Below, one piece after another: positions 816-55,759 of a stretch of DNA of 64,000 nt. This stretch comes from Emiliania huxleyi CCMP1516 (lineage: Eukaryota). Location: contig NW_005201277.1 in assembly GCF_000372725.1 (NCBI RefSeq), positions 134,347 to 198,346 on the forward strand, in the 5' to 3' direction. The notes below the pieces were generated by a model. It ran no database searches. It worked only from the letters and a program-made list of their open reading frames with translations, and was not told where the DNA came from. Within the stretch, counting starts at the first letter, position 1, and each line of letters starts with the position of its first letter. The position numbers were made by a program, and so were the translations under genes.

Positions 816-1805
816 CCTCAGCCCTGTCCCTGCCCGGAGCCGCCTCGGGGAGCGAGTCGTGCTCGGCGGGCTCTCGGCCCGCCCCGATCAACGGGCGGCG
901 GGGCGTGGCGCGGAGCTTCGAGGGAGACCGAGACCCAGGCGGCGGCCACTACGTGGTGCATCTCGAGGGCAGCGGCCAAAGCGGGGAGGGGGGGGGTGAG
1001 GTTGTGCGGGTGCGGCCGGAGAATCTGGATGGATTGTGAGTCCGACCCGGCCGCGCTCGCGCGGGCGCCGCCGCACTTTCGCGAGGCGTGGCTCTGAGCA
1101 CCCGTGGGGGGGTGGGGGTGGGAGGGTGGGTGGGTGGTTAATGACTTGAGTAAGGGAAGGCGATTGCGCAGCCGGCACCTCCAGCGCGGCCAACGTTGTT
1201 TCTACTAGACGAGCCTCTGTGGGGAAAAGAATAGATGTTCCGACGTCGACTCGAGTCCGAGAGGAGCGGAGAGAGGATTGGCGAGTGTGGCCCGAGCCGC
1301 GCAGGACGGAGGGGGAGAGCGAGAGGCTGCCGGCGCGCGGGGCGGGAGCGAAAACTCTGCACTCGGCACTGGACTGGCGCGCACTGGCACTAACAGGTAC
1401 ACCACGGGAGCCGCAAAGAATAAAACAAGCTGTAGGTAGGTAGGTAGAAAGGTGAAGAACAGCCAGGCTCGGACTGGACACCAACGCGGTATGGGTGGAC
1501 GCTGGACAGATGATGACGACACGCACGAGCGACACACAGACACAAACAGGCTCACAAGACACACAGCCAGCTGGCTGCCACACACCCTGAGTTGGCGTAC
1601 ACATAACTCAAGGCCACATCCTCCCTGTCGCCCCCCCCAGCACTCCAAGGTGCCAAGAGAAACAAACAAGGGCACAACAAACAACAGACGACAGGAAGTG
1701 ACATGTGAGGCTAGAGCAGCATGCTCCACCTCTAGCAATCTCTCCGGCCGGCAAGCTGTACATAGCTGTACCATACCGCAAAAAGTCCGAACCCTGCAAG
1801 TAAAG

Positions 1806-14274: not shown

Positions 14275-14521
14275 TACACGCCTTCAGTTTTGTTATCGAG
14301 AGCGGCGCATCCGCTATGGCCTATGCATCTAGTGTCGTCATCCATTCCAGCTGTGAGAGAACCTGATCGAGGTACGGCTGTGTCCAAAATAATGGTTAAT
14401 GCTGTTTTTTAGCACTTTTAAGTTTTATCTTGCGACGGCCAGTTTTGCGACGGTGTATCATTCACAATTTCACTTTACGTGGCTGGGTTCACAGCGATTG
14501 TAGGTAAGTGGAGGGACCAAT

Positions 14522-17500: not shown

Positions 17501-18385
17501 ATCACAAAGTACCTGAGCAGGAAGAATATGACCCAACCCAAGATCTTCAAAAACTGGGAGAAGGACCTCCTACAAAGCCCAGGGTGGATAAGAGAGGCAG
17601 GAAGAGACTCATGGGCGCGAGTACCGCGACCCGACCGACCGCACGACAGCTCGTCAAGATTCCGCCACAAAGTTGAGACAAGCAACAAAGTAGTCCACCC
17701 CCAGGATTGGATTCACGCGGCAAGAGCAATACACAGCACGCTAGTTCCGCCCACAATCACCGACAACTATTGCCGACACATCCTCTACAGGAAGCTGGTC
17801 CTTCGGAAACAGCTCAAGGCGTACGGACTAGACACCACAACACACACGAGGTGCAGGCTTTGTAACAGAACCTCCGAAACGCTGCGACACCTCGACGTAT
17901 GCCCAGTCGTCCGGGCGGTCTTTGCACAAGGAGAGTCACTAGACATACAACCGCCGAGATTACTCACCATCATCGGAACCTCGGCAGACACGCCTGAGGT
18001 CCACAACGCACTTCACCTACACATGTGGAATCAAATAATAGTCTCCTTCTACGAGGAGGAAGACATCAAACCCGAACAAACCTGGAAGGCGGTCTTGAAC
18101 CTATTAGTGAGAAACATGCAAGCGTACTCGGGAGAGGCCAAAACTAGGCTCCGACGAATAAGACGCAAGAGCGACCGAGTCAGCGATTCGACCATGAAAG
18201 AAATCAGCGACAAAGTAGAACCCATGGGGACGATTGACTACTACGGCAGACTACGACTGAGCAGGCGAGTGAATGAAGAACTAAGGAGAGTGGGACTCGA
18301 CCACCTCACCACAGAAGAGGCGACGACTCACGCACGAGAGATCAAGTTTGTCAAGGCCTCACAAGCTAGCACATCGAACACCTAA
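14522..18385 (+). CDS. ORF2-like reverse transcriptase with C-terminal zinc knuckle (zf-RVT-like)
   Basis: KSPGPD, NYRPLT, QLGFVPGR, LDWEKAFDRV, GVPQGCPFSP, LFADD, KILG; CRLC...ETLRHL..CP near the C-terminus. Confidence 0.92.
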   Translation: MYRAPCRGIARMEEAYKDQSSPAITRRMAKLHERYAEALAKRKANAETERRKAELKQRPTKSFFRKLQPGHASRTISSLHRTPDWDKPDEKNGVTTDPDEICDELARYYQWLFGPKQTIKQKRDILLTKLEEGQRFSDADATDMGKPFNKHEVRDAINLMKEGKSPGPDRLSPTFYKMFQRILIPHLVDLFNEAAKTGHLPECLTQGDIICLYKKGDPREIRNYRPLTMLQVGYKVYARILVNRLKTRITKVISPAQLGFVPGRIINEASHLLKLIQAYTDEMDQEGIILALDWEKAFDRVSWEYMHEAMHALNMGEEAIAKMGLLSNTKFPPTRRVKANGKKSNPFDIRSGVPQGCPFSPLAFLLVAEALTRMLEEGVDIDGQHVRPEGIQITDPDDRSLLVELVASLFADDTQALLKDYAQIDKLWIILQIYEEATGMRANPNKFEGIRLGPLKHQPPPTLNGRSRLIKWLERGSYTKILGIPYYLEETQEESNKFWEELYTKIKVSMASLRGLKDMKITGRALVANFKIFSRPRYWAFTMDPPEWFNEQLITDVNHLMWDKHPALDPEEEGSYEDLDRAPWIKNPHAPRRLEWSAGGGTPPKHELIGLGVALCDWEQHVKAIRAKALLRYLDASRGQYKTLLDLWLARAEIGRSSVLTSCKAYDLTRCLDPGAQRRDAPSKLPSFWIKAINDIRELQLKYLGSDNPLEARSTPIFNNPTLPLPPSITKFHNLFNTAQLLTVTNYFTSDDTAYLATSIDPYINFRYPRSTDEQIIVPLTGGKWHTTDRAKVYYAWHELGIILNKGGFNPAHRKANLLKREIWHGYDRSLKMLQRPPVAAKLRTLSTKVKLELRVKLLNLHDGPVVTNKGRHPRQTTTGPAPSPKEKFEPARVYTYLDVEDTVANNHKYLVRTLKKRAGHWHEEYWLAEQDAKGIVHPGTKITKDEFLRLNPLPALQWGQGYKESEEVAWPHPATYTFDGIDKPLDQISVGDITKYLSRKNMTQPKIFKNWEKDLLQSPGWIREAGRDSWARVPRPDRPHDSSSRFRHKVETSNKVVHPQDWIHAARAIHSTLVPPTITDNYCRHILYRKLVLRKQLKAYGLDTTTHTRCRLCNRTSETLRHLDVCPVVRAVFAQGESLDIQPPRLLTIIGTSADTPEVHNALHLHMWNQIIVSFYEEEDIKPEQTWKAVLNLLVRNMQAYSGEAKTRLRRIRRKSDRVSDSTMKEISDKVEPMGTIDYYGRLRLSRRVNEELRRVGLDHLTTEEATTHAREIKFVKASQASTSNT

Positions 18386-18740: not shown

Positions 18741-19246
18741 GAATGCGAAGAGTTAATATCTAGCCCGACTGCTCTCGCCGTCGGCCGATCTTTTCGTACT
18801 GCGAAGGGCGCGCGGCAGCCCGGATGATCAGCACCGATGGCGACATTGAGCAGCGGGGCGGGCGGAAGGGCATGTTGCAATTTTGCGACGCAGCAGGTTC
18901 CAACACCACAGCTCACACAGGAAGAGCACTGTATCACTCTTCACTCTGGATGCGACAAGACTAGCCCGAAAATTATCAAGCCCCCGGCTAGGACTACGTA
19001 AAAGCAACACACGCAATAATGGACAGTGCCGCGGGGAAATCGAGTGTAGAGAGAGTATGAACGGGAATCGGGTGACGGGTTTCGAGGACTTCATGCTCTC
19101 GAGGACCGCGCCAACGAAGTAGTGGACAACGGGGCGAGGGATGTGTGCGCCCTCTGCTGAGTTGACTTGTGTTCGCCGCCGCCCAGGCAACGGGAGTTCT
19201 CCTGCTTCTGACAAGGGACAGCGCCAGGCACGCAGCGCGATTTGAA

Positions 19247-20740
19247 ATGGTCTGCGCTCTCGAAATTCTTTTCTTCGCGAAGTCCACCCCGCCGCGCCGC
19301 TCGCGCCGCTCGCGCAGCATCGCCGCCGCCGCCTCCACCGCCGCCACCTATCCAGACACGCCGCCACCCGCCTGTCTCCTCGACCTCCCGACGGAGCTCC
19401 TCGTGCGCGCCCTCTCTCGCTGCAACAACCCCGCCGACATCGCTCGCGTCGCGGCCGTCTCGCTTCTCTTTCACGCCTCGCTTGTGGTGGAGGGCATCCG
19501 CTTGTGGGCGCGAGAGCGCGGCTTCGAGCTGCCGGCGCAGCCAGAGAACGAGGGCTGCGCCGTGCGGTGGCTGTGCTGTTCTGCGTTGCTGCGCGAGTCC
19601 AACCCGCCCGCGAGGGCGGCGGCAGGAATGCAGCACAGCGTTTTCATCGACGGGGAGGGGCGGCTCTCATCGTGCGGCTCAGCGCCGAATCAACGCCACC
19701 TCGGCCAAAGTCCAGGGCCACTTGGCCATGGTGAGGGCGTGACGCTGCTCAACACGCCGACCCTCCTCCCGTCGCCGCTGGGCGGCGAGCGCGCTGTGAG
19801 CGTGTCGGCCGCATCCGAGCACAACCTCGCCCTCGCCGCCGACGGCAGTGTCTGGAGCTGGGGCGTAGGAAGCGAGGGCAAGCTGGGCCACGGCGACGAG
19901 CAGCGCCAGCTGCTGCCCAAGAAGGTCGATACCTTGGCGGGGCAGCGCGTCGTCGCTGTGTCGGCGGGACTGCACCATTGCCTTGCCGTCACCGCCGACG
20001 GCGCCGTCTGGAGCTGGGGCTATGGAAACGACGGCCGTTTGGGCCACGGCGACGAGCAGCGCCAGCCGCTGCCGAAGAAGGTCGAGGCCTTGGTGGGTCA
20101 GCACGTCGTCGCCGTGTCGGGAGGAGTTTTCCACACCCTCGCCATCACTACCGACGGAGCCGTCTGGAGCTGGGGCGGTGGAAGCGATGGCCAGCTTGGC
20201 CACGGCAACCAGCAGCGCCAGCTGCTGCCGAGGAGGGTCGAGACCTTGGCTGGCCAACGCGTTGTCGCCGTGTCGGCTGGAGGCAACCACAGCCTCGTCA
20301 TCACCGCCAGCGGCGCTGTCTGGAGCTGGGGTTGGGGAGGCTATGGCCAGTTGGGCCACGGCGTCGTGCAGTACCAGCTGCTGCCACCAACGAAGGTCGA
20401 GGCCTTTGCTGGGCGGCGTGTCGTCGCCGTATCGGCTGGAGGCGATCACAGCCTCGCCCTCACTGCCGATGGCGCCGTCTGGAGCTGGGGCAATGGACGC
20501 TTTGGCCGGTTGGGCCACGGCGACGAGCGGCACGCTGAGCTGCTGCCGAGCAAGGTCGAGGCTTTGGCTGGGCAGCGCGTTGTCGCCGCGTCGGCTGGAC
20601 TGCACCACAGCCTCGCCCGCACCGCCGACGGCGCCGTCTTCACGTGGGGCAAGGGCGAAGACGGCCGCCTAGGCCACGGAGAGGACCTGTCGAACCAGCT
20701 GCAGCCCAAGAAGATCGAGGTGTGGGCGCCAGGGCAGTGA
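19247..20740 (+). CDS. F-box + RCC1-repeat (UVR8/HERC-like) protein, intronless
   Basis: LLDLPTELLVRAL F-box motif; about 7 repeats of VSAG..HSLA.T.DG.VWSWG....G.LGHG. Confidence 0.88.
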   Translation: MVCALEILFFAKSTPPRRSRRSRSIAAAASTAATYPDTPPPACLLDLPTELLVRALSRCNNPADIARVAAVSLLFHASLVVEGIRLWARERGFELPAQPENEGCAVRWLCCSALLRESNPPARAAAGMQHSVFIDGEGRLSSCGSAPNQRHLGQSPGPLGHGEGVTLLNTPTLLPSPLGGERAVSVSAASEHNLALAADGSVWSWGVGSEGKLGHGDEQRQLLPKKVDTLAGQRVVAVSAGLHHCLAVTADGAVWSWGYGNDGRLGHGDEQRQPLPKKVEALVGQHVVAVSGGVFHTLAITTDGAVWSWGGGSDGQLGHGNQQRQLLPRRVETLAGQRVVAVSAGGNHSLVITASGAVWSWGWGGYGQLGHGVVQYQLLPPTKVEAFAGRRVVAVSAGGDHSLALTADGAVWSWGNGRFGRLGHGDERHAELLPSKVEALAGQRVVAASAGLHHSLARTADGAVFTWGKGEDGRLGHGEDLSNQLQPKKIEVWAPGQ

Positions 20741-28770: not shown

Positions 28771-29964
28771 CCCACCAAATGCCGCCTCAGGGCGCCAGGC
28801 CGCCAGCCACCTCTTACACGCGGCCGGCGCCCTCTCGCGGCAAAAGCCAAAAGGGTCGAGCGAGCGGGCAGAGTCGCGATGTCCCTGCGCACCTGGGTGT
28901 TCGCCGCCTATATGCTCTATCCTGTGCCACGACGGACACGTTTTGACAATCAAAATCTACCTCAAAATTTGCGGCCGCCCCTCGAAATTTGCTGATCAAA
29001 ATTTGCGGTGGCCCGGATCGAAACCTGTACTTTGGCCAACTGCCAAAAAGCACCTTTGGCGGCTATTGCTCAAAACCCTGGGAGAGAAGGCCTACATAGT
29101 ATTACTGCATCCATGCGTCTGGTGCATGAGGGCTGTGGGTCGGGACATTTCACGGTCGGTGGCGCCGATATTGACCTCCGGAAAGCCCTCGCAATCGCTC
29201 GGCACGGGGTCACCGGCCACCGGGAGTGCTCTCGAGCCCTACACCGGAGCATCACGAGCCGGTGCGAGCTTGAAGACCCGAGATAAGTGCGGTCTGGGAC
29301 AGCTCAGGGTTGCTACTGATGGGCTAGGCCAGGAGAGCGACAGAGAAGGCGAGGTGGTGAGCTGGTAATCCATCGCAAGCGACCCGGAGCGCGCAACCGC
29401 GCATCTCGCCGCCGCGGGGCTCCGACTGGTTATCTAGACCTTCCTTCTTCCTCCCTGTTCCTTCCTTTCCCCTTCCCATCTCTTCCCGGCCTCCCGGCCG
29501 GCGCCTGCGGCGCCGTTCTTTTTTTTCCTTTTCTTAAAGAAAGAAAGAAAGAAAACAGACAACCCAAGGGAGGGATGGGAGGACGGCACGCCGCCACCAC
29601 ACAGGGATTTTAAGGAGAGGTGTGTGGTGCGCTAGCCGTCGCCCACCCTAGGGAGTCTGCCTCTTCCTATCTCTCTTCGCAGTCTCTCGCCGCTTCTCGC
29701 TGCATTCCTTTTCTTGCCACCATAGCTGCCTTGATTCCTTCGGACCACTAAACCGCTCTACCTATCCCATCCATTACCGTGCCCCATGTTTCAAGTGCGG
29801 TCGTTTTACCAGGCGCCCAACCGACGGCCGCGCCGCGATTTTTTTTTGCCTGCCCCGTCTTCGCCGTCGCGCGACGACCACGCCGGTGTCAAAACTTCGC
29901 CTTTTCTTTTTTCCGCCCTTCTCTTTTATACCTGGTAAAACGCATGCCAAATTCTTTGTTCACG

Positions 29965-31101
29965 ATGGTGCCCGCCTCGACGCCCTCTGCGCCGCCGCCA
30001 AGCGGCGCCGCGCCGCCTCCCGGCTCCGAGACTTTGGACCTTGGTCGCTGGCAGGTCGTCATCGCCGATGGGCACGCGGTGCTGCCCGAAGGCATGACGC
30101 ACTTGCCGGACGGGGCGTTTCGCGGCCGCACCTCTCTCGTCTCGGTCGCCTTCCCGCGCAGCCTCGCCTCCATCGGCAGCGGCGCCTTCGAGGGCTGCTC
30201 CTCGCTCGTCTCCATCGACCTCCCCGCCAGCCTCGTCTCCATCGGCAACCAGGCCTTTTACAGCTGTTCCTCCTTCATCTCCATAGACCTCCCTGCCAGC
30301 CTCACCTCCATCAGCGACTTCGCCTTCCGCGACTGCTCCGCCCTCTCCTCCGTCACCTTCCCCGCCACCCTCACCTCCATCGGCCGCAACGCCTTCGAGG
30401 GCTGCTCCGCCCTCGTCTCCGCCGCCTTCCCCGCCGGCCTCACCTCCATCGGCATCTGCGCCTTCGCCTTCTGCTCCTCCCTCGTCTCCGTCACCCTCCC
30501 CGCCGGCCTCACCTCCATCGGCATGTACGCCTTCAACAGCTGCGAGGCCCTCTCCTCCGTCACCTTCCCCGCCGGCCTTACATCCATCGACCACGGCGCC
30601 TTATACGGCTGCTCCGCCCTCTCCTCCGTCACCTTCCCCGCTGGCCTCACCTCCATCGGCAACAGCGCCTTCAACGGCTGCGAGGCCCTCGGCTCCGTCA
30701 CCTTCCCCGCCGGCCTCACCTCCATCGGCATCTTCGCCTTCTCCCGCTGCTCCGCCCTCTCCTCCGTCACCTTCACCGCCAGCCTCACCTCCATCGGCGG
30801 CTACGCCTTCTGCGGCTGCTCCTCCCTGACCCGCGTCACCGTGCCAGACACCGCCACGATCGGCGACGAGGCTTTCGAACCTGAGACCACCGTCCTCCGC
30901 CTCCCTCCCAAGAGAATGCGCGACCTGCAGCGCTGGTACGAGGCGGTGGCTTTTGTTCTGGCCTACAAACGCTGCCGCCCCCTCCTCTACGGCTGGCTAG
31001 AGCGGGCCCAGACCAGGCTCGGCTCTTACGGCCCGGACGGCGCGGCGCGCCAGCGCGACCTCGAGGAGTTCGAGGGCGATTTTGGGCTGCTTGTAGAGTG
31101 A
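29965..31101 (+). CDS. BspA-type (LRR_5/TpLRR) leucine-rich repeat protein, intronless
   Basis: About 11-12 repeats of 23 aa, FPAGLTSIGxxAFxxCSALSSVT. Confidence 0.9.
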   Translation: MVPASTPSAPPPSGAAPPPGSETLDLGRWQVVIADGHAVLPEGMTHLPDGAFRGRTSLVSVAFPRSLASIGSGAFEGCSSLVSIDLPASLVSIGNQAFYSCSSFISIDLPASLTSISDFAFRDCSALSSVTFPATLTSIGRNAFEGCSALVSAAFPAGLTSIGICAFAFCSSLVSVTLPAGLTSIGMYAFNSCEALSSVTFPAGLTSIDHGALYGCSALSSVTFPAGLTSIGNSAFNGCEALGSVTFPAGLTSIGIFAFSRCSALSSVTFTASLTSIGGYAFCGCSSLTRVTVPDTATIGDEAFEPETTVLRLPPKRMRDLQRWYEAVAFVLAYKRCRPLLYGWLERAQTRLGSYGPDGAARQRDLEEFEGDFGLLVE

Positions 31102-31245
31102 CAGGCGTGATTGAAACCGCCGGCGCTGCGGCTGGAGCTCCTCCTCCTGTTAGTCCTGAGGAGGAGCGTGTACGAGACCCGCCAGCTGCTGCTTCCTTCA
31201 GCCAGACGGCCGGGCCTGCGCAGCACGACCGCTCCATGCAGACAG

Positions 31246-32694
31246 CAGACTGACATCCCTGCGGCGAGGCTTGTTGCGGGCGCGCGCAGCCAGAGGGCGG
31301 CGCGGGGAGTGGCGGCGTGCGCGTGGTCCCGAGGCGGAGGCGGTGTGCTGCAGGCGAGCGGGAGAAGCTGCTGCAGATGGAGGCGACGCTCGCGCGGTCC
31401 GTCATCGGGCAGGACGAGGCGCTCGCCGTCGTGTCGAACGCGGTGCGAGTCTCGCGCGCGGGGCTGCAGTCGTCCGAGCGCCCGCTCGGCGCGCCCCTGC
31501 TGGTGTGGCCGACCGGCTCGCTCTGCCTGCCGCGAGCCCTCCCGGAGCCTTGCCTGCGCAGGCACCTTCATGCTGGTCGGGCCGACCGGCGTGGGCAAGA
31601 CGCGCCTCTGCAAGGTTCCTCTTCGACTCGGCCGACGCGGTCACGCGGCTCGACATGTCCGAGTTCAGCGAGAAGCACGCCGTCTCTCGCCTCGTCGGCG
31701 CGCCGCCCGGCTACGTCGGGTACGACGAGGGCGGCCAGCTGACCGAGGCGGTGCGGCGGCGGCCGTACTCGGTGCTGCTCCTCGACGAGTTCGAGAAGGC
31801 GCACCGCGAGGTTGCGACGCTGCTGCTGCAGGTCCTCGACGAGGGCCGCCTCACCGACTCGCAGGGCAGACGGTCGACTTCCGCAACACGATCATCATCA
31901 TGACGTCCAATTTGGGCGCAGAGGCAGCTCGCGTCGCTGCCGGAGGGGGCCGCCTCCTCCAAGGCGCGGCCCGAAGTGCTCAAGGCGATCGCGGACGCCT
32001 TCCCGCCCGGGTTCGTCAACCGGCTCGACGAGATTGTGGGCCCCGTAGCCGAGATTGTGAGCCCCGTAGCCGAGGTTGTGGGCCCCGTAGCCGAGACGCG
32101 GCGCGAGGGGGGGCCGAGAGGGTTCGCCGTCGAGTTCCGGCTTCGCCCCCCCTCCCCCCCTCCCCCCGGCGGCCTGCTCACCGGCGGCGCCGCGAGCAGG
32201 TCCTCTTCGAGCGGCTCACCCGCGAGCGCATCGCCGCCATCTGCGCTGTCGAGGTGCAGCTGCGGGAGCGCCTCTCTGCGCGCGGTGTCCGCCTGCGCCT
32301 CTCCCCGGACGCCCTGCTCCGGCTGGCGGAGGCCGGGTACGACCCGGCGTACGGCGCGCGGCCGGTGCGGCGCGCCATCCGCCACCACCTGCTCGACCCG
32401 CTCTCCCGGCTGCTGATCGGAGACCAGGAGGCGCAGGACGGCGCGACCGTCCTCGTCGACACGAAGGACACCGGCGCGGGCGCGGGCGGCGGCGCGGCGC
32501 AGCCCTCCATCGTGCCGCCGCTGCCGGGCGTGCCTTTCGCCACGGGGCTGTTTGGCGCCGGCGGCGCCGCCGCGGCGGTGCCGCCGAGCGACATGGCCGC
32601 CGCTGTGCGCATCCGATTGCTGGCTCCGGGTGCGCCGCTTCCGCCAGAGGACACGGGGGTCGACTGGGACGAGGGGCCGGAGTCGGCAGCGTAG
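31246..32694 (+). pseudogene. clpB: ClpB/Hsp78/Hsp101 C-terminal (NBD2) fragment with frameshifts
   Basis: [81 protein letters not shown]; frame breaks near 31615 and 31870; NBD1 absent. Confidence 0.8.
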
Positions 32695-32771
32695 CCGTAG
32701 GTGTGCCTGATACTTTATGTGTTTCAACTAAAAACATCAAAAAGGCAAAACATCCAACTGCAACTAAATCT

Positions 32772-35700
32772 TCATACAAACGTCGGCATGACCCGGATCT
32801 CGTAATACACCACCTTTGGCTTATTCGGCTTGCCCTCCACAGACTCCTCCTTGTACTCGCGCAGCTGGTTGGCAAGCTCCTCCGTGGAGCTCGCCTTGGC
32901 TCTGGATGGCCCCGGCTTTCCGCCGCTGCCGGACGGGGCGCCCGCTAGCACCGCTTCGGTCGAGAAACGCGAGTTGGTCTTTTGCTTTGTGGCCTTCCAT
33001 GCCGCCTTTTTGTCTTCTGCTGTCACTGCAGGCGAGTCCTTCTGCTCGAGAACCTGCAGCATGGTGCACGGCGGGAAGAGCACCTCCTCCTCGCCGGCAA
33101 ACTGCGAGAGCAGCGAGATGTCGGCGCCGTGGTGGAAGCCCGTGTCTCCCTCGCATGACGGGCGGAGGCTCCACAGCACGTTCGGGCCATTCTCGTCCAT
33201 GTACATCAAAGGCGTCGCGCGGTTGCGGGAAGTGGACATGAAGGCGGTGTCCGTGGCACAGACCATGCCGAGCTCGCCCCGCACCCAAAACGAGTATGGC
33301 AGCTCGCCGCGCACGCCACGGTAGAGAGGCTTTTCCGCCTCCTCTGGCAGCGTGATGGCGGAGAGCTTGCGGATGGCGCGGCAGAGGTGCGCCACAGTGG
33401 CGGTGAAGGTCGCCGCCGGGTGCGTCGCAATGAGCCGGCGGAAGCCGCCGGAATTGTTGCCGATCTCGCGCAGGAAGCGGTTTATGGGCTGGTAGGCTGG
33501 GCCAGTGTACAGCCGCACCGCGAGCACCTCCTCGCGCGTCAGGAAGGCGTTGGCCTCGCTCGGCATCGGCGTGTCCGGGCTTATCTGCTTCAGCTTCTCG
33601 CGCCGCTCTGCAATGCGCGCGTTCATGCGATCGCAAAACTGCACCACGGACATGCCGCCGTTTTTCTCGTCGCGCGTGCCGCGCGTCTTGTCAGCGGCGG
33701 GGACGGCTTCCCCGTTGACGTACTCCCACTCCTCGCGCAGCGTGTACATGACGTCCTTGAAGTCCGTCCAGGAGTAGTCTCGCATAAACTCCTGCTCGAG
33801 CGTGAGCAGCGGCCGCTCGATGATGTCGTCGAGGCCCTTGACAAACGCCTTGCGCGACGACGCGTACTGCAAAGAGACGGGCAGCTCCGCCATCTTGCCG
33901 CCTCCGGAGCCGCTCGAGCCGCCAAGCCGCTTCGGCGCCCTAAAGGTCGCCGTGACGACGAGAAGGTCGACCTTCGGCCTCGTCACGCCGTCTGGCGCGA
34001 GCCAGCTGCCGGCGCGCTTGGTCTCCTTGAGTCGGAACAGCGTGTTGGGCGGGAAGGCCCCCGAAGTCTGCTTCCGGGAAGTCGGCTTCAACGCCCCGCC
34101 GCCCTTCGATGCGGTGGGCGCGATCGTCTTCTTGATGACGATTGGTGCGTGGTCGCCGTGGTCGTCGCTCGCCGCCGCCTCGAAGCAGACAATGGGACCG
34201 CTGACAGGCTTCAAGCCCCCGTCGTCAAAGACCATGAAGCCCTCCTCGCTAAAGCAGTCGAGGCGGTCGTTTGCCTGAGGTGGGGGATGGAGAGCGCTGA
34301 GATGCGGGCTGCGCGGAGATGCTCAGCAGCCCGGGTGTGGGGTGCGGGGCGCGCGCACCATGACCATCACCTCGGAGACGAGCCCTCGGACGCCCGCCTC
34401 GTCGGGCGTGCGGATGCTGCTCCACTGCGAGTAGTCCGACGCCAGCCCAAACTTGCCCTCGAGGTTCTTGTACAGCGACGGCGGAAGCGCAAATTTCTTC
34501 TGCAGGTCGTACTCAGAGCTGAGAGCCTCGGAGAGGGCGTACGTGGAGCAGACGTAGTCCTTCCGGCCCTCCCGCATCGCGGCTGCCAGCGAGCCCCTCA
34601 CCGACTGCAGGGCGTAATAGATCTCCGCGTGCTTCGGATCCATGCCGCTATCGACGCTCTCCTTGATCCCGCGAGCAAACTTTTTGAGCACGCTGTCGAG
34701 GGACTTGTTTTCCCTCACATACTCCTCGGTGCCCTTGTCCTTGTCCGCCAGGTCGTCAGAACGCAAGTACTCCTCGGTCCGCAGCTTCACCCACTCCTCC
34801 CGCCACTTCTCCATGCAATCGTCCGGAGGCGGCCCAACGCAGTCTCGCAGCGAGCGCAAGTAGCCAGTGCGGCTGGTCGGGTTGCCCGGCGGAGTGAGCT
34901 CCGCCACTCGCGTGCGCGCTGCGAGGAGCGAACTCCCCGCCGCAAGCACCTGCTCGCGCGCTTCGCAGAGCTGCACGTCGGAGAGGTACTTCCCCAGAGG
35001 CCAAGTCAGCTTGGGCCGTGGCGCCGTGCCCTCGGGCGGCGGCGGCGGCGTGTTGGCGAAATAGAGCCGCGCCGAAGGGCGGAAGAGGCCGGGGCGGGTG
35101 AGCAGGACGGAGAGGCGGAGCAGGCCGGCCGCGCCGATCGACCAGAGGCGTTCTGGGAACTCTGCCCAGAACCGGTGCTTGCCCCACTTCTCGACGGCCC
35201 TGTCCCAGCCGGCGCCCTTCTGCTTCAGCAGCTCGTCGAGCGTCTTGTCCACCAGCGGCGTGAGCTCCTCCACCGAGATCCACCGCTCCGAGAAGCCGAG
35301 CTGAGCGATGTCCGCAAAGCCGGATATGGCCAGCACCCCGCCGCGTATCGGCACGTGGGCACGCAAGTGCGGCCAGCTGGCGTCGACCACGCGCTCGAGG
35401 CTCTGCCGCGACCGCTCGAGCGACGGCCACTCTCCGGCTGCTGCTGCCGCGTCCGCCTTGAAAGCGTCCTGCACCTCGCCCACGCTGAGCGGCATAGAGA
35501 CGGGAGACACCCCGCCCTCGGCGGTTGACATGCCGCGGATGCCCACCTGCACCGACGAGCCGCCGCCGGCGAGCAGCTGCACGCCGCCGTCATGCCCCGC
35601 GTCCTCAAAGGCCGCATGGAAGAGCGCCTTCGCCGCCGTCCACTCCCACCGCACCTCGTCGAGGCCCTCGACGACGCGGAAGGTGACATTCGGGTGCTCG

Positions 35701-38700
35701 CATCGGCAGAAGCGCGCGAACTGGTCAACCTTGCGCGCGCCCTCGTCGCTGTCCCGAATCTTGCGCACGCCGCCGGTGGCGCCGATGAAGATGCCCCGCT
35801 CCAGGTCGGCGTCGAAGTCGGCGAGCGTATCAGAGAGCAGCTTGAAGAAGAGTTCAAAGGTCTCATCGCCGCCGTCGTTGATGGCGTCGCCCAGTGTCAT
35901 GAAGCTCTTGTCGTCGCGCCGCAGCTTGGCGCTGTGGAGGATCACCGGCATGCCGTCTGGTCCCTGGTCGTACGCGAAAACCTCGGTGTGCCGCGAGCCG
36001 GCGTCGACCACAAAGGCCCTCGGCATCGAGACGCGCGCGGCGAACTTGACGGGAGCGACGCGTCGTGGAGAGGGACGCTCGAAGGAGCGGTGCTTGGAGA
36101 GGGAGACCTTGCCGTGGAGGTCTGGCGACGCGTCAGGGACGCTCACGCTTGCGAGAGAGCCGTCGCGGCTTTTGCCATCGAAGGTGACCGATTTGCGCGG
36201 CGACGGCGACCTTGGGCCCACCGACGGCTGATGTTTGGAGCTACAGGCACCTCCGAAGCAGCCACCAAAGCAGCCACCGCGCCCGATATCGACCACCTCG
36301 ACAGGGCTGTCGTGCTTATTTGCACCCGCTCGCTGCGTCGAGTGGTTCACGGCTGGCTCTGCCTGCTGCTCTGTACCTGCATCGGCCTCCTTCCTCTTCC
36401 GGAAGAGCTCTGCTCCCGGAAGTATCTCGTGCGCACTTGCCATCAGGCGGTCCTGCTCATCGACAGTCTCTCCCTTCAACCGCAGCGTCAACTCAACCAG
36501 TTGCGCGACGCGCTCATCGGAGTGGACGCCAAGCGGCAGCTTGAGTGCAATGTCGCCCGCGTACACTGTCTTGATGCTGGTGCTGGAGCTGAGATCGGCG
36601 GCAAGGAGCATGCTGTCCTCCTGGCTAAGGCTCTGGTCGGGCAAGTCAACCTCCCCGGACCGAAACCCGCAGAGCGTTTGCAGAGTCTGGTGCTGCTTGA
36701 AGACAGCCACGAGCTGCTGAGCCACCACGAGGGGAATGCTGTTGCCGAGGAGGTTGACCGTGATCAGCGAGCGGCTGGCTGCGAGGCCCTTGGCAATCGC
36801 AAGCACGCCAGTGGCGTCGACCAGTTTTAGTTTGGTCACGACAACGTCCTTCCTTGCAACCTCAACCTTCATCGACCGGCCGTCGAGGTCGTTGCCGTTG
36901 AGCTCGGTGGCCGCGTCCGCGGCGTGGGCGGAGGCGAACTGGAGGTAGCCGGAGCCCTCGATATTGCCAGAGTCCGCGTGCGTGAGCCACTCGATCTTCG
37001 TGATCTCGCCGCACTTGGCAAAAACCTCCTTGATCTGCTCATCGGTGACCGACCACGGGAGGTTGCCCAGGAAGACGCGGCCGCTGACTACTTTTTTCTC
37101 AGTGAAGTCCTTCGCCTCAAACACAATCAAATTGCGGTCCTGGTAGACCACCTCGGCCCCGACCTCCTTCGACTCACCCGAGAACAGCATGCCGATGCCC
37201 TTGCACAGCTGCTCTGCGCCAGCCGCCACGGCCGCAAGCGCCGCTTCGCGCGTGGCGAAGCGAACGATCGCAGGAGCTATGTGCAGCTCGCAAGTCTCGA
37301 TCCGCCCAAAGCTGCCAAGCGTCGCGAGGATCGCCTGCTCTTCGATGCCTCTCTTCAAGTCGAAGAGGCAGACGGAGCGCTCACCCTTAGTTGCGTCGAC
37401 GTAGTCGGTCACCTGGCAAATGCCACTGGAGGAGAGGTCGAGGGTGGTCAGCGTCTGGCTGAGCTTCAGAACGCCGGCGAGCAGGGTTGCAGCCGCCGGG
37501 CCAATCGGGTTGGACTTGACGACGAGGGACTGAGCACCCGCAGGCAAATCAAAGGCATCGCACTTGAGGGCTCCCAGCTTGCTCGCGCTGCTGCTGAGGA
37601 GCGACGCGCCAATGTTTCGCATGCCCGAATCGGTGATCGAGTTGGAGCTCACGTCGAGGTAGGACAAAGTAGAGTTCACGGCGAGAGCCCTGGCGAATGC
37701 GGCGGCGCCGTTGGGGCCAAGCTCATTGCCGCTGAGGTCGAGAGTGGCCAGCATCTTGTTGCACTTGAGCGCCTCGGCGAGAGCAGCGGCGCCCTCGTCG
37801 GCGAGCTCGTTGCCGCCGAGGCGTAGGTTAAGCAGCGAACGGTTGAAACGAAGATCGGCGGCGATGAGGATGCCGTCGGCCGGTCTGAGCTCCGACCCTG
37901 AGAGATCGGCCTCCGACTGGCCGGGCTGAAACCCGCAGAGCGTTTGCAGAGTCTGGTGCTGCTCGAAGAGGACGGTAAGCTTCTCGGCCGCCGCAGTGCC
38001 GATTTTATTCTCAAGCAGATTGACGCCGGCCGCCACATTGCCTTTCAATAGCAACGCGATCACCATGCCCGAGGCGACGCCAAAGCCCCTGTTAGAGAGG
38101 TCGAGAATCTCCGCGAGGGTCGGCGCGTCATTGCGGAGCTGCAACAGGTTGAAGTTCGAATCGTCGAGCTTCAAGTCTGTCAGACTCGTCTTAGTCTTGA
38201 TCGCGAGCGCCTCGCAGATGGCAGCGGCACCGTTAGGACCGATGTCTATGTAGCGCAAGTCGAGGCTGGTCAAGGTGCAGTTGCTCGCCAGCGCCTTGGC
38301 GATTGCAACGACACCGGAGTCGCTGATGTCGTTCTCGGAGAGGGTCAGAGTGGCCAACGTCTCATTGGCGGCGAGGGCCTTGGCGATCGAAGTGGCCCCC
38401 TCTGTGCTGATCTTGTTGTTGCGGAGGTCAATCACCTCCAGCGACGTGTTGACCTCGAGGGCGTTTGCTATCGCTGAAGCGCCGCGGTCTCCCAGTTCGT
38501 TTCCGGAGAGGGACAGGCTGGTCAGGGTCGGGTTGTCCTCAAGCAACGACGCGATCACGATGCCGGAGGCGACGCCGAGGCCCTTGCGGGAAAGGTCGAG
38601 GGACGTCACCGGCTCAATGCCACGTAGCTGCGACAGATTGAGCTTGAACCCGTCGAGGCTCAACTCGGATAGCACCGTGTTGATCTTGAGCACCGCGAGC

Positions 38701-41484
38701 GACTTCAGCGCGCCAGCAATCCGTTCGCCCTCGCGCGGGCCTAGCCGAGCATCTTCTACATCCAACGTCGCCAGCCGTGAAGCTGAGGCAAAGAGCAGCG
38801 CCGCTAGCCCGGAGCCGCGTCCCTTGGCCTTCGCGCCCAAGTTTAGCTCCTCCGACTCCAACAAGCGCGGCTCCGCCTCGCACAACGCCTTGAGCTGCTG
38901 CGGCCAGTCCTCAACGCAACTCGACGCAAGCACCGCGCTGTCAATCGCGCCGCCGAGCGCGGCATCGTCGTTGTAGAACGTGGCCTCGCGTGACGAAACT
39001 GAGTCTAGCCAGGCCTGGAGGAAGCGCGCAACGTCCTCGCGCGTCGTGCCCGTCGACTGAAAGAAGCCGTCCCACCCCTGCTCCACGCTCGTCTGGTTGG
39101 TCATCTTGTTGGTCAGCCCAAGCTGAAGCTGCTCGCTCATGTCCTGCACCACCTTACGCCGCTTCGACACGACCTGGTCCAGCGTGAGCGCGAGGAGGTT
39201 AAGACTGAGCCGCGCGTCGACGACGAGGGTGCCGCCCTCCACGCGCGTGCCGAGCGCCTCGATGCCGGTGAGCGGCGGCAGCAGCACCTCCTTCTCGTGC
39301 GGGTACTGTGACAGCCACGCGATGTCTGCGCCGCGGTCGACCATGCCCATCTGCATCTCGAAGATGGTCGAAGCGGCGCCCTGCGCGTACTGCATAGCCT
39401 GCGACTCGGTGGTGGTCGTTGAGGCGAAGGCGAACTCGACGCCGCCGCACGTGCCGAAAGAATTCGGCTCCCAGAAGGACGGCGGGAGCTTGGCGGACGA
39501 GAATCCGCGGTACACCTTGGTCGCCTTGGTGAGCTTGCTCAGCTTGATCACGCACGAGTTGATGCCGTGGATGGTCGTCGGGAAGTCGTTGTCGCCGTTG
39601 AGATCCTTTTGCTTCTGCTCGAGGCGAGGGTTGCCGCTCTTGGCGCGGAGCACCGCGTTGTAGAGCTCGTAGCATGGCCCCGTGTACAGCCGGCCGGCGA
39701 CGACCTCCTCCTCGACGAGGGCCGTGTGGCCGTGCGTCTTGAGCTCCTCGTTCTTGGTCTGCATCATCTCGAGCAGCTCCTCGTACGGCACGGGCTTGCG
39801 GCACAGCGACGGGCGCTCCTCGCGAAAGCCCTCGCGCTCCGCATAGACGCGAGCCGAGTTGGGCTCCGCGACAAACTCCCACTCGCCGGCCGGCGTGGTG
39901 GTCATGCCGTTGGAGGAGGTGAAGGCGACGTGCGACCGGTCGCGCAAGCAGTGCTCCTCCTGCATTCCCTTGAGCAGCGACTTGTTGACCATGCGCGGCG
40001 GCCCGATGAGTCCCTCGAGGCCTGCACGCGCACAAGGGCGGGTGGAGCGAGACGAGAGGTACAGGGCACAAGCACATGAGCGCTGCACCTCCGTAGAAGA
40101 GATCGACGTTGCCGTAGCTCATCTCAAAGGAAGCCTCCTGCTTGAACTTGTCGTTGAGCTCCGCGCCCGTCGCCGCCTTCTGGCCGCGCAGCTCCTCGAG
40201 GGCCTTCCAGATGGGCGTCGCCAGCCCGCCCAACTGCGCTGCCTGCAGCATGCCGTCGAGCCTCTCGCGCGACAGCGAGCACAGGTATGCAAAGGGGTCG
40301 TCGCCGGACGGGTCCTGCAGCGCCTCGCCGACGATGTCAAGGAGGTTGAGGGAGCGCAGCCAGCCGAGCACGCTCCAACCCGAGTCGTGCGCCGCACCGC
40401 TTCCCTCGAGCCACTCAAAGAGCTCGAGCCGCCGTGCCGCCCGCTCGATGAGACTGCGGTGGCCTCCGTACAGCTCACGCCACGCCTGCGACGCCCTGCC
40501 TTGCTCGTCCACGTGCAGCCACTTGACCGCCTGCGCATCGTCGCCCGAGGCGAGACGCAGCTTGTTTCCGAGCTCCTTTGAGCAATGGAAGTGGACGGCA
40601 GTCGTCTCGGTCCAGGCGTTGTCGGTGTTTCGCGGGTCGTCGGTGTAGCCGCGGTAGACTTGGCGGCCGCCGGCGAAGAGCTCCTTCATCTGCTTCTCGA
40701 AGAGCTCCTTCGCCTCGCCCTCGAGGTTGCCCGCCTCCTCCTTAAACTCGCGCTTGACCGCATCTGAGAGCGACTCCCCCTCGTCCACCATGCCGCCTGG
40801 CAGCGCCCACTGCTTGGTGTCGCACCGCTGGATCACAATCACCTGCAGCCGCCCGGCGTCGTCGTACCGTGTGACGATTGGGTCGGCGGCGTGGTTTGGC
40901 CCCCACTTGCCGAGCAGCCCGCGGCCGCACAGGCCGGTGCGCCCCATCGGGTTGAGCGGTCGGTCGCCGTCGAAGAGCAGCGCCTTGCCCACCGCCTCAG
41001 TCTGTCCATCAAAGGCATACGTCTTGCGGTCGGCCAGCTTGGCGCGGCTGACACGAGGCGGGTCGGCCCACCTGTCGCCGGTGTGCAGCTCGCGGCTATT
41101 GGCGAATACGGCATCGTCGGTCCACTCAGTCGGCGAGTAGCCAGCGAAAGGCACCTCCCACCGCACCTCGCCGTCCTCCACCGCCTGCCGCTGCGGGTAG
41201 GAGCTGTTCTCCTGGCTTCGCGACTTGACGTGCGGTGACTGCGTTGCGTCGAGCTCTGGTGCTCGCTGCGAATAGGCCTCGGGCGGTGCATCGGCGCGGA
41301 GCACAGGAGCCGAAGCGGTGCCAGCCCCGAGCGGATGCGGCGCCGGCTTCGACACGATCTCCTCGGCTCTCTCGCTGCTCTGAAGGCCCTTAGCGTTCGC
41401 ACTTGAAATGTGTGATGCACTGACTTCGGACTCTATCGCCGCACTCCGCTGTGGCCTAGCTAACTTCGACCCGGAGGAGCCCAT
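32772..41484 (-). CDS. Giant multidomain protein (~2,853 aa): myristoylation motif - NUDT9-like - ART - LRR (with 2 RRM) - GDA1/CD39-like NTPDase - degenerate ART - ART; exons 41484-40089, 40021-34359, 34274-32772
   Basis: Two in-phase GT-AG introns (40022-40088, 34275-34358) join three long ORFs; motifs NPMGRTG..GRGLLGKWGPNH, GGMVDEGE..REFKEEAG, VYRG/STT/EKEVLL, DAGSRHT/GATGGVR/GGSSVQ/WPLG, LYRG/STS/EEEVLF. Confidence 0.85.
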
Positions 41485-45237: not shown

Positions 45238-45665
45238 CGGATGAAGATCCAGGCCGCGTGCTTACTGTGCTCGTCGTGAAAAAATACTATATATTTTGGA
45301 CGCTAAGTACACGGCGTCAAAAAAGTTGTCACCCTTGTCACCCGAGGTCTGCGGCGGCGTGCGCGTGGTCTCAGGTCCGGGGGCGCGTCTTGGGACTCCC
45401 GCTCGTGTGACCCGGGTCCCTGCGGATTGCGAGTCTGCGAGGCGCATGCGGCGGATACAGGTCAGCGCCCCCCCCCCCCCACACCCACCCACCCACCACC
45501 ACTGCCTCTGCAGGACTCCAGCTGGTGGCACAGGGTGTCAGGCCACGGGGCTTCTTCACCACCCCTGCCCCCCCCCCCTCCCCTCCCACACGCGACACGG
45601 TACTTTGCGCCCCCGCCGGCCCGAGACGTGCCAAAAGGTGCCGCGGCTTGGCTCAGTAGACCAGC

Positions 45666-47008
45666 CTAGAAGCTGGAAGTGAGCGGGATGCCGCGCTCCT
45701 TGCACACGGCCACCAGCTCTGGCTGCTTCTCATTGTCCACGACCAGCTCCTGCACGCGAGGGGAGGTGCGATGGGCATTGGGCGGGGGAGGGGCGTGTGG
45801 CGAGGGGGGGCGTCTCGCGCCTTCAAGCTCGGGGCGGCCCCCTCCTTGAGGGCGGCGGCCAGCGCCTTGCAGCCCTCGTCGCCAATCTTGTTTTGGAAGA
45901 GAGCGAGCTCCTCGAGCCGCGGCGCTGCCCCCTCCTTGAGGGCGGCGGCCAGCGCCTTGCAGCCCTCATCGCCAATCTCGTTCTGCAAGAGATACAGCTT
46001 CTCGAGCCGCGGCGCTGCCCCGCTCGCGAGGACCTCCGCCAGCTGCGCCGCTTCCGCGTCGCCCCAGCCGAGTTCGATGTAGAACAGCTCGGTCGCCTTG
46101 CCAAACTGCTCCTCGAAGGCGCCCTCGTACAGCCCCTTCACCAGCGGCTTGTCGTCCTTGCCGTTGGTGAAGCTCTTCTTCTCCAGCTCCGCCGCGAACG
46201 CAGACGGCAGCAGCGGGGGGCGCCGGCCGCCGCTCTTGACGCAGTCGTCTCGGAGGCTGTCGTAGTCGTACTCCACGCCGGCGCGCATCTTGCCGAGGTC
46301 GAGCGAGAGGGTCCAGTTCTTGGTCAGGCTCGCCCAGCTGTTCTCGACGAAGCACCAGCCGCGGTCAAAGTACTTGGCCACGTTGGTGCCCTCGGCCTGG
46401 TCCTCCGCCTTGTGGCCGTCTGGGAAGGAGGTCAGCCGCAGCACGGTCGTTTTAGGGTGGGAGTAGAGCGTGCCGAGGCAGCCCAGCCCCTGCTTGAAGA
46501 GCGCGTTCTCCTCCTCGGTGCGCATGACGTCGTTGGCCGGGTCGGGGTGCTGGTGCAGCGAGCCGAAGTCCCAAAAGACGCCGAGCCGCGATATGTACGG
46601 ATCGCTGAGCAGAGCCTTGAGCGCCCTTGCGACGCGGGACAGGTTGGCTCCGATCGGGTCGGGGTGGTCCTTGGTCAGCCATGGGTAGGAGAGCGCGGCG
46701 ATGGGAAGGTGAGCCCCGTGATACTCAAGGTAGGCGAACGCCTCGACGAGGTCGGCGAGGGAGAGAAAGGCCTCTTTGGGCAGCGCCTGGCGATGGGTGA
46801 GGACGCCGCCCGCCTCGGCGTGGACGATGATCCAGTGCGCGTCAAGGAGGGCGACGGCGCCGCTCGCGAGGACCGGCTCCAGGTCGCCGCCGCCGAGCCT
46901 GCGCCACAGCTCCAGCTTCTTCTCGTACCGCTCCAGCTTCTCCTCGAAGGTCCTCGGACGCACCCACGAGTCGTAGGTCCGGCCCGGCTTGCTTTTTCCG
47001 CAGCCCAT
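45666..47008 (-). CDS. Myristoylated HET-like domain + RI-like LRR protein (GC-AG intron 45750-45820)
   Basis: MGCGKSK; ALSYPW...HPDP, VFWDFGSLHQ, YFDRGWCFVE, FTNG; LEKLYL.QNEIGDEGCKALA repeats. Confidence 0.8.
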
Positions 47009-47046
47009 GGCTGAACCGATTTGCTTTGCAAAAAAGCGCGCCGCCC

Positions 47047-47215
47047 CAGGGTTCGGACTTTCTGCGGGGTATGGTATGGTTGCCCATACCCCCCCGCATG
47101 TTGACAGACCTGCTCGGGTATGGTATGGCTAGTCTTGGGCGGTCAGGACCATACCCTCCCACCCCTTTGGGCCGTGATGGTACCATACCATACCCCGGAA
47201 AAAGTTGGAACCCAG
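47047..47215. mobile_element. Small MITE with hAT-like CAGGG termini; related single ends at ~22190-22230 and ~43261-43293
   Basis: Imperfect inverted repeat CAGGGTTC..ACTTT.T.CGGGGTATGGTATGGT. Confidence 0.6.
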
Positions 47216-52805: not shown

Positions 52806-54973
52806 TCAATGCGGCCGCCCAAGCTCACAGGTGGCCCCCTTGGGTGGCGGCGGCGGGCACGTGCCATTGCCGCACGCCAGGCAGCCGCAGCGATCGACGG
52901 CCGCCCACGCTCGCGCGTCCATGTAGTGGATTGCCAGGCTGGTCGCATCGCACCACCGCTGCAGTCCACCGCGGCCGCTGATGTCGTGGAAGCGCTCGTC
53001 GTCGAAATGTCGGATGTCGAGCGCCGCTGTCCACAGTCCGGCGGTGGCGTCGGCGGGCCAGATACGACGAAATGGCAGGCGGCTGTGCGCCACCCATTCG
53101 GCCACATCACGAGAGTAGACCCACCCGAGGCCCGACGGGTAGGGCAGGAAGAGAAAGAGGCCCTCGGCGAAGCTCGGGCGGAGCGATTTGGGCAGCATGC
53201 AGAGCCACAACGACTCGTTGCGCTTCAGCCCGCCCGCACGCAGCCTCTGCACGTCGTCATTACGGCACCCGCGCACGAACCGACCCCAGATGAGGTGCGA
53301 TGTCGGGATCGGCTCGGCGCGGATCGCGCGGAGCAGCGCGTGCACCCGCACGTACGTGTCGTCGTGGATGCGCATGATATAGCCCGCACGCGGGTGCGCC
53401 TCAATCGCCCAGCGGAGCAGTGCGAGCAGCTTGCTGGCCTCGGGGTCCGAACGGCTGCGCGCGGGCACCGCGCCCCCCGGGACAAAGCCGTCGGAGTCGC
53501 TACAGTTGGCCACCAGTATGTCGCCGTGACGCCGCATCTCGGCCCTCACGGAGCGGCGCAGGAGCGCGCTTGCGGCGGAAGAGCCGCCACCACCGCTGCC
53601 GCCGCCGCCGCCGCCGCCGTGGCCGCCGCCGCCGCCACCACCACCATTGCCACCCATGCCCAGCGCATCTGCACCGAGGACGAACGCGAGCGCAACGCGC
53701 TTTGCTAGGTGGTACGACGGGTAGGCGAATGTGAGTGTGTGCAGACCGTGGCGGATCGCGTCGCGGCGCTCCACGTGCGCTGCGCGTCCAAGCACGCCGA
53801 TGACGAGCTCCACGCGAGATGTCGCGGCGGTGGTGTGGGAGGCAGTGGGCGCAGTGGGCAGGGGCTTGGTGCCGTCGTCGTCGTTAGCGGGTGCAATGCG
53901 GCGTGTCGCGGGCCCCGCAGCCCGCAGCGGTGACATGGCCGCGCGACGCATCGGCCACTCCGCCCAAACCCTGCCGCGCAGCGAGCGGTTCGACGCCGCC
54001 TCGGCGGCACGGCACGCGACGCGCGGCAACTCGCATGGCGCCATTGCTGCATAGCGGGCATGCTCGACGGCGTGCGGCGCGCCGGCGTCGACTGCGCGAC
54101 CGCCGGTGTTCCCAGGGAAGCTCCAGGCCGAGCCGTGCAGCAACTTGGCGCCCGAAGTGAGCGAGGCGGCGGACCCATCGTAAAGCGAACCGCACGGCAG
54201 CACCAGCTGCGCGCGCTTCGGCAGAAACCGCAGCGCCGACAACTGAATATTCCACGTGCACGGCAGCTTTGCCACCATGGCTGGATGGCGCGCGAACGCC
54301 GCATTGAACCAGTCCTGGTCGCCAAACTCGAGGCGCGCGGATGGGCCAGCTGCGCCGAGCGCGCGCCACACCGCGTGGCTACTCACGTTGAGCCAATGCT
54401 GGCTGCGCGCGCGGGCGAGGTCCATCAGGACGAGGCCGCCATTGTACGGTGCCGCGGCGTACGGCCTCAACCAATACTGCGGCTTCCACTTGCGCAGACG
54501 GATTGCGTCGAGCGCCATGCCGAAGGCGATTGCTGACGAGGCGGCGCGCGCAGTCTCAAAGACGGCCCATAGTTCCGCCACGTCGGCTCGCCACAGAACG
54601 TCGGCGTCGACGGCGACAAGCGAGATCACGTCCGCTGGCAGCACGTGCGGCAGCGCCACCTTGACAAGGGTTGAAAAGTCGAGAGCGCTGCGCTGAAGTA
54701 GGGCTGAAGCTGAGGCCGGCATCAGCTGCGCCACCGTCTGGAAGACCATTGCGCGCGTGTGAAGCTTGCAGCGCAGCCACGCGCCACCGCATGCGCTCGC
54801 GAGAAACTCTGCAAGAGTGGTATCGCTGGCCTCATCCGCCATCACGTGGATTTGAAGAGGCGACGGCCAGCTGTAGTGGTGGAGCAGCGACTTTATCATG
54901 ACGATTGCCTGCGCGGCGGAGGCGTTGCCGCAGCCAGCGGTCCAAACGTGGAGCGGCGTTCCTCTCGCGTGAT
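52806..54973 (-). CDS. Bifunctional glycosyltransferase: GT8 (LARGE/GXYLT-like) + GT31 (beta-1,3-GalT-like); 5' end lost in the gap
   Basis: MIKSLL, VDADVL, YNGGLVLMDL, GDQDWFN, LPCTWNIQL, LLHG; then ERRDAIR, AEMRRHGDIL, IHDDTYV, YPSGLGWVYSRD. Confidence 0.85.
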
Positions 54974-55073
54974 NNNNNNNNNNNNNNNNNNNNNNNNNNN
55001 NNNNNNNNNNNNNNNNNNNNNNNNNNNNNNNNNNNNNNNNNNNNNNNNNNNNNNNNNNNNNNNNNNNNNNNNN
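54974..55073. other. Assembly gap (N run)
   Basis: N bases. Confidence 1.
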
Positions 55074-55117
55074 TATCCCCTGACTTACCTTCCACGAACC
55101 TTCCGCGAGCCCTCTAG

Positions 55118-55759
55118 GCGCCGTCGTCGTCTTTGGAGGGTGGAGGATGGGCGCGATGGGGCAAGACGTGCTCCTCGGCGATACGTCGCTCCTGCTAGAT
55201 GCGACCCGCCGACACTTCCGAGAGACACTTCCGCGACACTTCCGATACGTCGCTCCTGCTAGATGCGACCCGCCGACGCTGAGAGACACTTCCGAGAGAC
55301 ACTTCCGAGAGACACTTCCGAGAGAGCTCGACCCGCGACACTTCGACGAACCTTACACGAACTGCCTCCGAGACACTTCCGAGAGGCGTCTCCGAACCTG
55401 CCTCAAGCCTGCCAGCCCCGAGCGTGCCTCGTGAGCCTTCCGGGACCCTTCCGGGACCCTTCCGGGACCCTTCCGGGACCCTTCCGGGACCCTTCCCACG
55501 CAGGTACGTGCTCGACCTCGACGCGCCGCAGGTGCACCCGCCCTCGCCCAGCAGCGCTCGCGAGCGGGCCAGCCGCGCGTGGGCCGCCCGTGGTGCGCGG
55601 TCTCCAGGACACGTGGGCGCACGCACGCGGTGGCGCGCGAGGGTCGCGGCGGCCGCCGCGCCGCAGCGTGGCCGATGGGCGTGGATCGCCGCGGGGTGTG
55701 CGGCGGCGCTGCCTCTCCTCGCCCGCGTGGCTCACTCTGGCCTCCGCTGCCTCTGGTAG
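55118..55759 (+). CDS. 3' exons of a Kelch-repeat protein with C-terminal hydrophobic segment
   Basis: Spliced GAVVVFGGW...VLLGDT|YVLDLD; WAWIAAGCAAALPLL near the stop. Confidence 0.55.

Follow-up and report, generated by a model that had tools for sequence, protein, structure and literature searches.

Organization of the locus and of the host gene

The window, meaning the whole 64,000-nucleotide stretch of Emiliania huxleyi CCMP1516 DNA analyzed here, is GC-rich, eukaryotic, and rich in repeat-domain genes; its closest named protein relatives come from E. huxleyi. It carries ankyrin repeats (5165-6379, minus strand), RCC1 repeats (19166-20740, plus strand) and a BspA-type LRR gene (29752-31101, plus strand), together with an AP2 domain (1440-4856, plus strand), a reverse transcriptase ORF (14504-18385, plus strand), a ClpB piece (31111-32694, plus strand) and glycosyltransferases (52806-55352, minus strand).

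The gene studied here lies on the minus strand and has three exons, whose joined translation, with the start codon assumed, comprises 2,853 amino acids with no internal stop (Table 1). The encoded protein contains, in order, a NUDT9-type Nudix domain, an ADP-ribosyltransferase (ART) domain, ribonuclease-inhibitor-type LRRs with an insert, a domain with putative apyrase-like motifs, and a second ART domain. The LRR region matches Pfam LRR_6 with an E value of 1.9e-35, and the LRR fold upstream of the insert matches the LRRs of RanGAP1, NOD2 and NLRP proteins (Z 12-15). A Pfam scan of all three coding pieces returned NUDIX, ART, LRR and RRM only, with neither NB-ARC nor NACHT. The domain in the C-terminal half (35103-36026) gave no match in searches of PDB, Pfam and NCBIfam, and we take its motifs to recall apyrase/ASKHA proteins. 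The assumed N-terminus (41464-41484) fits the N-myristoylation pattern M-G-x-x-x-S, presumably a hint of membrane attachment.

Table 1. Features of the host gene and of the insert in its LRR region. Positions are those of the window.
Feature	Position	Strand	Basis or remark
Exon 1	40089..41484	-	Start codon assumed; low-complexity N-terminus, then NUDT9-type Nudix domain
NUDT9-type Nudix domain	about 41232-40399	-	Pfam NUDIX E 3.7e-15; PDB ADP-ribose pyrophosphatase 1q33 E 1.6e-52
Intron, 67 nt, GT-AG	40022..40088	-	Skipped in contigs of RNA runs X2, X8; ends checked
ART domain 1	39228..39722	-	Pfam ART E 6.9e-06, above cut-off; R, S-T-T, E-x-E motifs by eye
Ribonuclease-inhibitor-type LRRs before insert	37455..38534	-	Pfam LRR_6; 28-residue spacing
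Interrupted LRR unit, first half (strand)	37416..37454	-	Aligned to empty form P0034 and L001
Older small loop insert, first piece	37385..37415	-	Alignment with P0034, L001
Inserted RRM-fold domain 1	37184..37384	-	Net 201 nt, in frame; without RNP aromatics
Older small insert, middle piece	37084..37183	-	Continuous in P0034, L001
Inserted RRM 2	36853..37083	-	Replaces about 10 codons; Pfam RRM_1
Older small insert, last piece	36819..36852	-	Alignment with P0034, L001
Interrupted LRR unit, second half (helix), and final LRR unit	36660..36818	-	Alignment, spacing, models
Apyrase/ASKHA-like-motif domain	35103..36026	-	Motifs by eye in translation
Intron, 84 nt, GT-AG	34275..34358	-	Skipped in contigs of 4/4 RNA runs checked; ends checked
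Last exon with stop codon	32772..34274	-	Carries ART domain 2
ART domain 2	about 33617-33039	-	Pfam ART E 2.8e-10

Two RRMs within one LRR unit

A first-pass annotation had proposed that one LRR unit opens, is interrupted by two RRM segments and then resumes, and this description was borne out. The whole interrupted LRR region is held by a stop-free minus-strand ORF (34323-40118), and every motif quoted in the annotation sits in one stop-free frame: the LRR strand (37454-37416), the first RRM-like segment (from 37376), the spacer (37178-37134), RNP2 of the second RRM, hereafter RRM2 (37079-37044), the LRR helix (36818-36783) and the next LRR strand (from 36776). Intact LRR units are 28 residues apart, and the strands flanking the insert are 228 apart, that is, a unit of 29 plus an insert of 199 residues. 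The helix and strand that follow the insert appear in both models with low to moderate confidence.

RRM2 is readily recognized: it matches Pfam RRM_1 at E 3.8e-17, and a search of PDB gave 82 sequences with E values of 1e-6 or lower. The first RRM segment taken alone gives a weak sequence match (best PDB E 0.84); the profile of its family matches solved RRMs (best E 8.9e-07), and the segment models as a full beta-alpha-beta-beta-alpha-beta domain with pLDDT 96-98, matching solved RRMs with Z 10-11 and rmsd 1.6-3.5 Å over 65-80 residues. In the same model (pTM 0.37, no alignment used) RRM2 is poorly modeled, and the packing of the parts is not shown.

The segment between the two RRMs, previously called a short spacer, is present but is not a linker; it belongs to an older small insert, split by the RRMs, of which it forms the middle part. 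Other RNA contigs match the spacer (37139-37179) and then run on into sequence of the small-insert family. The small insert has no confident fold (pLDDT 20-28). Judged from the alignments with RRM-less proteins, the order of nesting is an LRR loop, the older small insert within it, and then the two RRMs at sites 100 nt apart.

Copies without the RRMs

A search with the first RRM and the spacer against 1.84 billion representative sequences gave 60 matches. One of them, P0034, is a named E. huxleyi protein (EMIHUDRAFT_259973) with the same LRR block and without either RRM; its alignment with the window shows two clean gaps, one per RRM, within a continuous small insert of ~65 residues. An unrelated metagenome LRR protein, L001, carries a shorter form of this small insert and no cargo. 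The homologues found lack the RRMs altogether and do not have them between independent LRR domains. In a survey for the small insert, only 1 of 207 candidates matched, the query itself, and one metagenome locus was found; viral contigs held no relatives, and the Atlas only short clusters with a weak score.

Contigs from six of 15 listed runs were compared with the window, the two true introns serving as splicing controls. Since at least one true intron is skipped in each of them, runs X2, X3, X7 and X8 hold spliced RNA. RRM-less contigs occurred in four of the six runs (X1, X2, X3 and X8), with joints from 37183 to 37390/37392 at the first RRM and from 36852 to 37083/37094 at RRM2. In place of the first RRM these empty contigs have 5-7 different letters and in place of RRM2 31-32, and their net length differences are in frame (201 nt at the first site, 198 or 210 nt at the second). 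Those from X1 and X2 show 15 further differences in 159 aligned bases. Both filled and empty forms are present in X1 and X2; among the matches listed, the filled form was found only in organism A. Because RRM-less copies exist, in the E. huxleyi protein and in four of six runs, the RRMs are regarded as insertions and not as introns.

It is highly improbable that the RRM segments are spliced out as introns or mis-joined in the assembly. GT/GC-AG pairs do lie near the borders, as expected by chance, and contigs that skip both RRMs occur, but none of the six runs contains a clean GT/GC-AG skip over the RRMs, and the skipping contigs represent another copy rather than a splice form, since they differ from the window DNA at the joints and at 15 of 159 aligned bases. 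The empty form is, moreover, also a genome-derived protein. Contigs of X2 and X7 cross the junction of the LRR with the first RRM without any difference, and contigs of X1, X2 and X4 cross that of RRM2 with the LRR with 0-1 differences. Each inner junction is covered by one record in X1 and one in X2, again with 0 differences, albeit with a short side of 29-30 letters, which falls just below our threshold of 31 letters per side. In X2 the filled pieces have a depth of 18-25, close to that of the spliced upstream contig (21).

The surrounding region may also vary in copy. An internal repeat (37852-37969 and 36592-36703, 76% identical) brackets a block of ~420 codons that includes the insert, and P0034 passes from its empty insert into an LRR block of the upstream type, which suggests that the block may be tandemly repeated. 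Contig depth, which is a poor measure, was about twice as high in the shared LRR block as in the unique parts in X2, X3 and X4, with no doubling in X1 (13.8 vs 10-12.5 and 12.3). RNA contigs of the C-terminal half (32500-36691) diverge from the window by ~3-4%, include several indels, and reach ~10 times the depth of the N-terminal half in X2 and X3; a second copy sharing this half, either a paralogue or an allele, is therefore likely. A second variable spot lies at 36129-36253, where a contig of organism B has 36 other bases in place of 123 of a low-complexity linker.

Donor families and direction of transfer

RRM2 shares 88% identity with the first RRM of a stand-alone, K/E-rich, nucleolin/NSR1-like protein with three RRMs (P0009/P0016) from the E. 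huxleyi cluster UniRef100_A0A7S3W903, and its DNA is ~93% identical to a high-depth RNA contig. Chromista nucleolins are described as having two RRMs plus RGG (available text of bioRxiv 2025.03.02.641111); as the donor is without this layout, "nucleolin-like" denotes resemblance only.

Identity of the first RRM to its best relatives is 64-81%, and an X7 contig agrees with it completely over 85 nt before continuing as donor-type sequence. For the family count, 55 of the 60 matches were kept, after removal of P0034 (empty form), P0045, P0075, P0084 (bacterial Ig-like repeats) and P0049 (ordinary multi-RRM). A flank motif of one uncharacterized host domain, within which the RRM of this family lies, was present in 53 of these 55, the LRR motif in none. 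Donor-family proteins showed NACHT matches in 5 of 23 cases, all below the Pfam cut-off, and ankyrin repeats in 2 of 23. We presume a likeness of this host domain to HET/TIR domains; neither HET nor TIR was found with Pfam to E 5 in 15 donor-family proteins, or with PADLOC. The window itself contains a gene with the same domain (45656-47128, minus strand; probability 98.9), followed by LRRs. At the place of the donors' RRM this gene has just a short loop, so that it represents the empty site of the donor family, and the first RRM was already an insert there. A weaker match to the domain (probability 71), followed by LRR-like repeats, lies at 60640-62222 on the plus strand.

The borders of empty and donor-type sequences coincide. 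In organism B (X8) the empty form, which joins the unique downstream part of the gene, breaks at 37083, and contigs of the RRM2 donor type have their borders at 37084 and 36856. At the first RRM the break in the empty form is at 37183, next to 37184, where one border of the donor-type contigs lies; their other border is at 37381-37386. This coincidence favors insertion over deletion. The RRMs probably arrived recently and in separate events, each as a copy from a different gene of the same organism. Exon shuffling was considered and rejected, as coding sequence continues across the borders in the donor-type contigs.

RNA-binding residues

Aligned with hnRNP C, the first RRM carries C, P and I where a canonical RRM has its three RNP aromatics (RNP2 position 2, RNP1 positions 3 and 5). 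Its family likewise has no RNP aromatics, and Cys occupies RNP2 position 2 in 16 of 20 relatives. RRM2 differs from its donor at 9 of 76 residues (K40N, F41I, K42E, A44S, F46Y, A53H, K60E, A70S and I75V), and residues 1-39 are identical. All seven donor-cluster proteins that hold the full RRM have the donor residue at all nine sites, and the changes must thus have arisen in the copy. At loop 3/RNP1, a stretch of seven residues holds five of these changes; the chance of this is about 0.006, with the stretch chosen post hoc. The net charge changes from -1 to -6, with three lysines lost, among them the RNP1 lysine, which is now glutamate. On the other hand, RRM2 retains two aromatics, the RNP2 Phe and one at RNP1 position 5, and position 3 was non-aromatic already in the donor. 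At the DNA level there are 10 non-synonymous changes (8 listed, 2 inferred from the protein) vs 2-5 synonymous ones, a ratio with no departure from neutrality (p 0.36-0.75).

As far as sequence can tell, the RNA-binding residues are worn in both RRMs, and RRM2 is predicted to bind RNA more weakly than its donor. The earlier suggestion that the RRMs make the enzymatic output RNA-responsive is weakened accordingly by the missing aromatics in the first RRM and by the K-to-N and K-to-E changes and charge of -6 in RRM2.

Comparison with known systems

Island domains of BRI1-type LRR receptor kinases and receptor-like proteins also interrupt a solenoid with a non-LRR segment, after which the repeats resume. 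They are extracellular, fixed, ligand-binding inserts, whereas the insert described here is intracellular, occurs in some copies and not in others, and consists of entire domains taken from other genes.

The insert had also been likened to the integrated domains of plant NLRs (NLR-IDs). The analogy stands in that both RRMs are recent copies of other genes' domains and are absent from close homologues; it fails in that NB-ARC/NACHT is missing, and for lack of a nucleotide-binding domain the host protein is not an NLR-ID. As in RRS1-WRKY, Pik-1 and RGA5 HMA (PMC9528084, available text), a host-domain copy sits in an LRR protein with a likely defense role, a close donor gene exists, and the copy differs from it on the functional face. 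Unlike these, the host protein carries its output domains, the ARTs and NUDT9, in its own chain, and the cargo lies in an older insert inside a single repeat. The integrated domains in Table 1 of PMC9528084 do not include RRM, and the term has no match in the main text of PMC12787737, whose supplementary lists may include it.

In brown algae, ROCO and NB-ARC-TPR proteins are candidate immune receptors with rapidly remodeled repeats, each repeat being a shuffled exon (PMC3341825, available text). In contrast, the LRRs here lie in one 5.7-kb exon, with no introns at the insert borders. The family of the host protein is not described in the available parts of PMC2939053, PMC13109558 or bioRxiv 2025.03.02.641111, and no paper on a haptophyte or Emiliania ADP-ribosyltransferase-LRR family was found in a search that left most subscription literature outside its scope.

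Interpretation

Two whole, in-frame RRMs are transcribed within one loop and are absent from near-identical copies. Our preferred, still tentative reading, to which we would give slightly less than an even chance, is that the two domains, captured separately and recently, are displayed as bait for a parasite factor directed against the donor proteins. Copying would have occurred by illegitimate or templated recombination, as the donor sequence continues as coding sequence past both borders. The insert loop would point away from the LRR solenoid, and cargo would therefore be tolerated there. Binding or modification of an RRM by a parasite factor would alter the restraint of the LRRs on the ART domains; the released ARTs would modify a target with NAD+ as their substrate, and ADP-ribose would be removed by NUDT9. 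In line with such a bait, the gaps in P0034 fall exactly at both RRMs, the empty joints in four of six runs are all in frame, donor contig ends meet the empty-site borders, and both captures, from unrelated donors, are whole domains 100 nt apart. The RRM2 changes cluster at loop 3/RNP1 and all lead away from the donor-cluster residues, and the host protein pairs a repeat solenoid with two ARTs and an ADP-ribose hydrolase. Plant receptors integrate copies of effector targets (PMC9528084, available text), and an RRM protein is known as an effector target, GRP7 of HopU1 (PMC9157115, available text). Against a bait, the parasite, ligand and activity of the protein are hypothetical, and even its immune role is putative, being proposed from its architecture. 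The RRM2 substitutions are compatible with neutral drift, the two retained aromatics mean that RRM2 may still bind RNA, and the model does not resolve the packing. The RRMs are also dispensable, since empty copies are transcribed too and the named genome protein is empty; the filled form is confined to organism A among the matches listed, and L001, the unrelated small-insert carrier fetched, is cargo-free.

That the RRMs are tolerated passengers is somewhat unlikely. Here a permissive loop in a recombining family would have received accidental copies that serve no function and now drift, those not whole or out of frame having broken the protein. The neutral-like substitution ratio of RRM2 would fit, as would changes in conserved small-insert residues of the filled copy (differences at 37131-37138), the joint presence of filled and empty forms in X1 and X2, and the regional turnover seen in the internal repeat, the diverged high-depth C-terminal copy and the reverse transcriptase ORF of the window. 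Two independent captures of an RRM fold within 100 nt from unrelated donors would, however, be a large coincidence, and the changes in RRM2 gather on its RNA-binding face while residues 1-39 are untouched. A role in RNA sensing or targeting, with RRM2 binding RNA and thereby triggering the ARTs or bringing them to RNA or RNP substrates, we consider improbable. RRM2 is canonical, comes from a likely RNA-binding housekeeping protein and keeps two aromatics, and its changes could retune specificity rather than abolish binding; an ART that modifies mRNA in antiviral defense is known in CmdT (PMC11618068, available text). Yet glutamate has replaced the RNP1 lysine, two further lysines are gone and the net charge is -6, and neither the first RRM nor its family has RNP aromatics. 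RNA input would in any case not be a family trait, because empty copies work without any RRM.

The bait reading can be extended to a haptophyte LRR landing-pad loop that repeatedly takes up whole domains, giving non-NLR decoys wired to ARTs and observed here with filled and empty copies side by side. Its baits would mimic a nucleolar RNA-binding protein and a module of algal NACHT receptors and so guard a housekeeping target as well as a second immune protein; this extension is unlikely to hold. If the RRMs are baits, integrated decoys, which are established in land-plant NLRs, would extend to an alga, with enzyme outputs instead of a nucleotide-binding switch, and the baits would name host proteins attacked by viruses or bacteria of a bloom-forming type of alga. 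Even as passengers, the two RRMs constitute an unusually clean record of domain capture, in which one can see the empty site, the two donor families and the borders, and the availability of filled and empty copies makes mechanism and selection directly testable.
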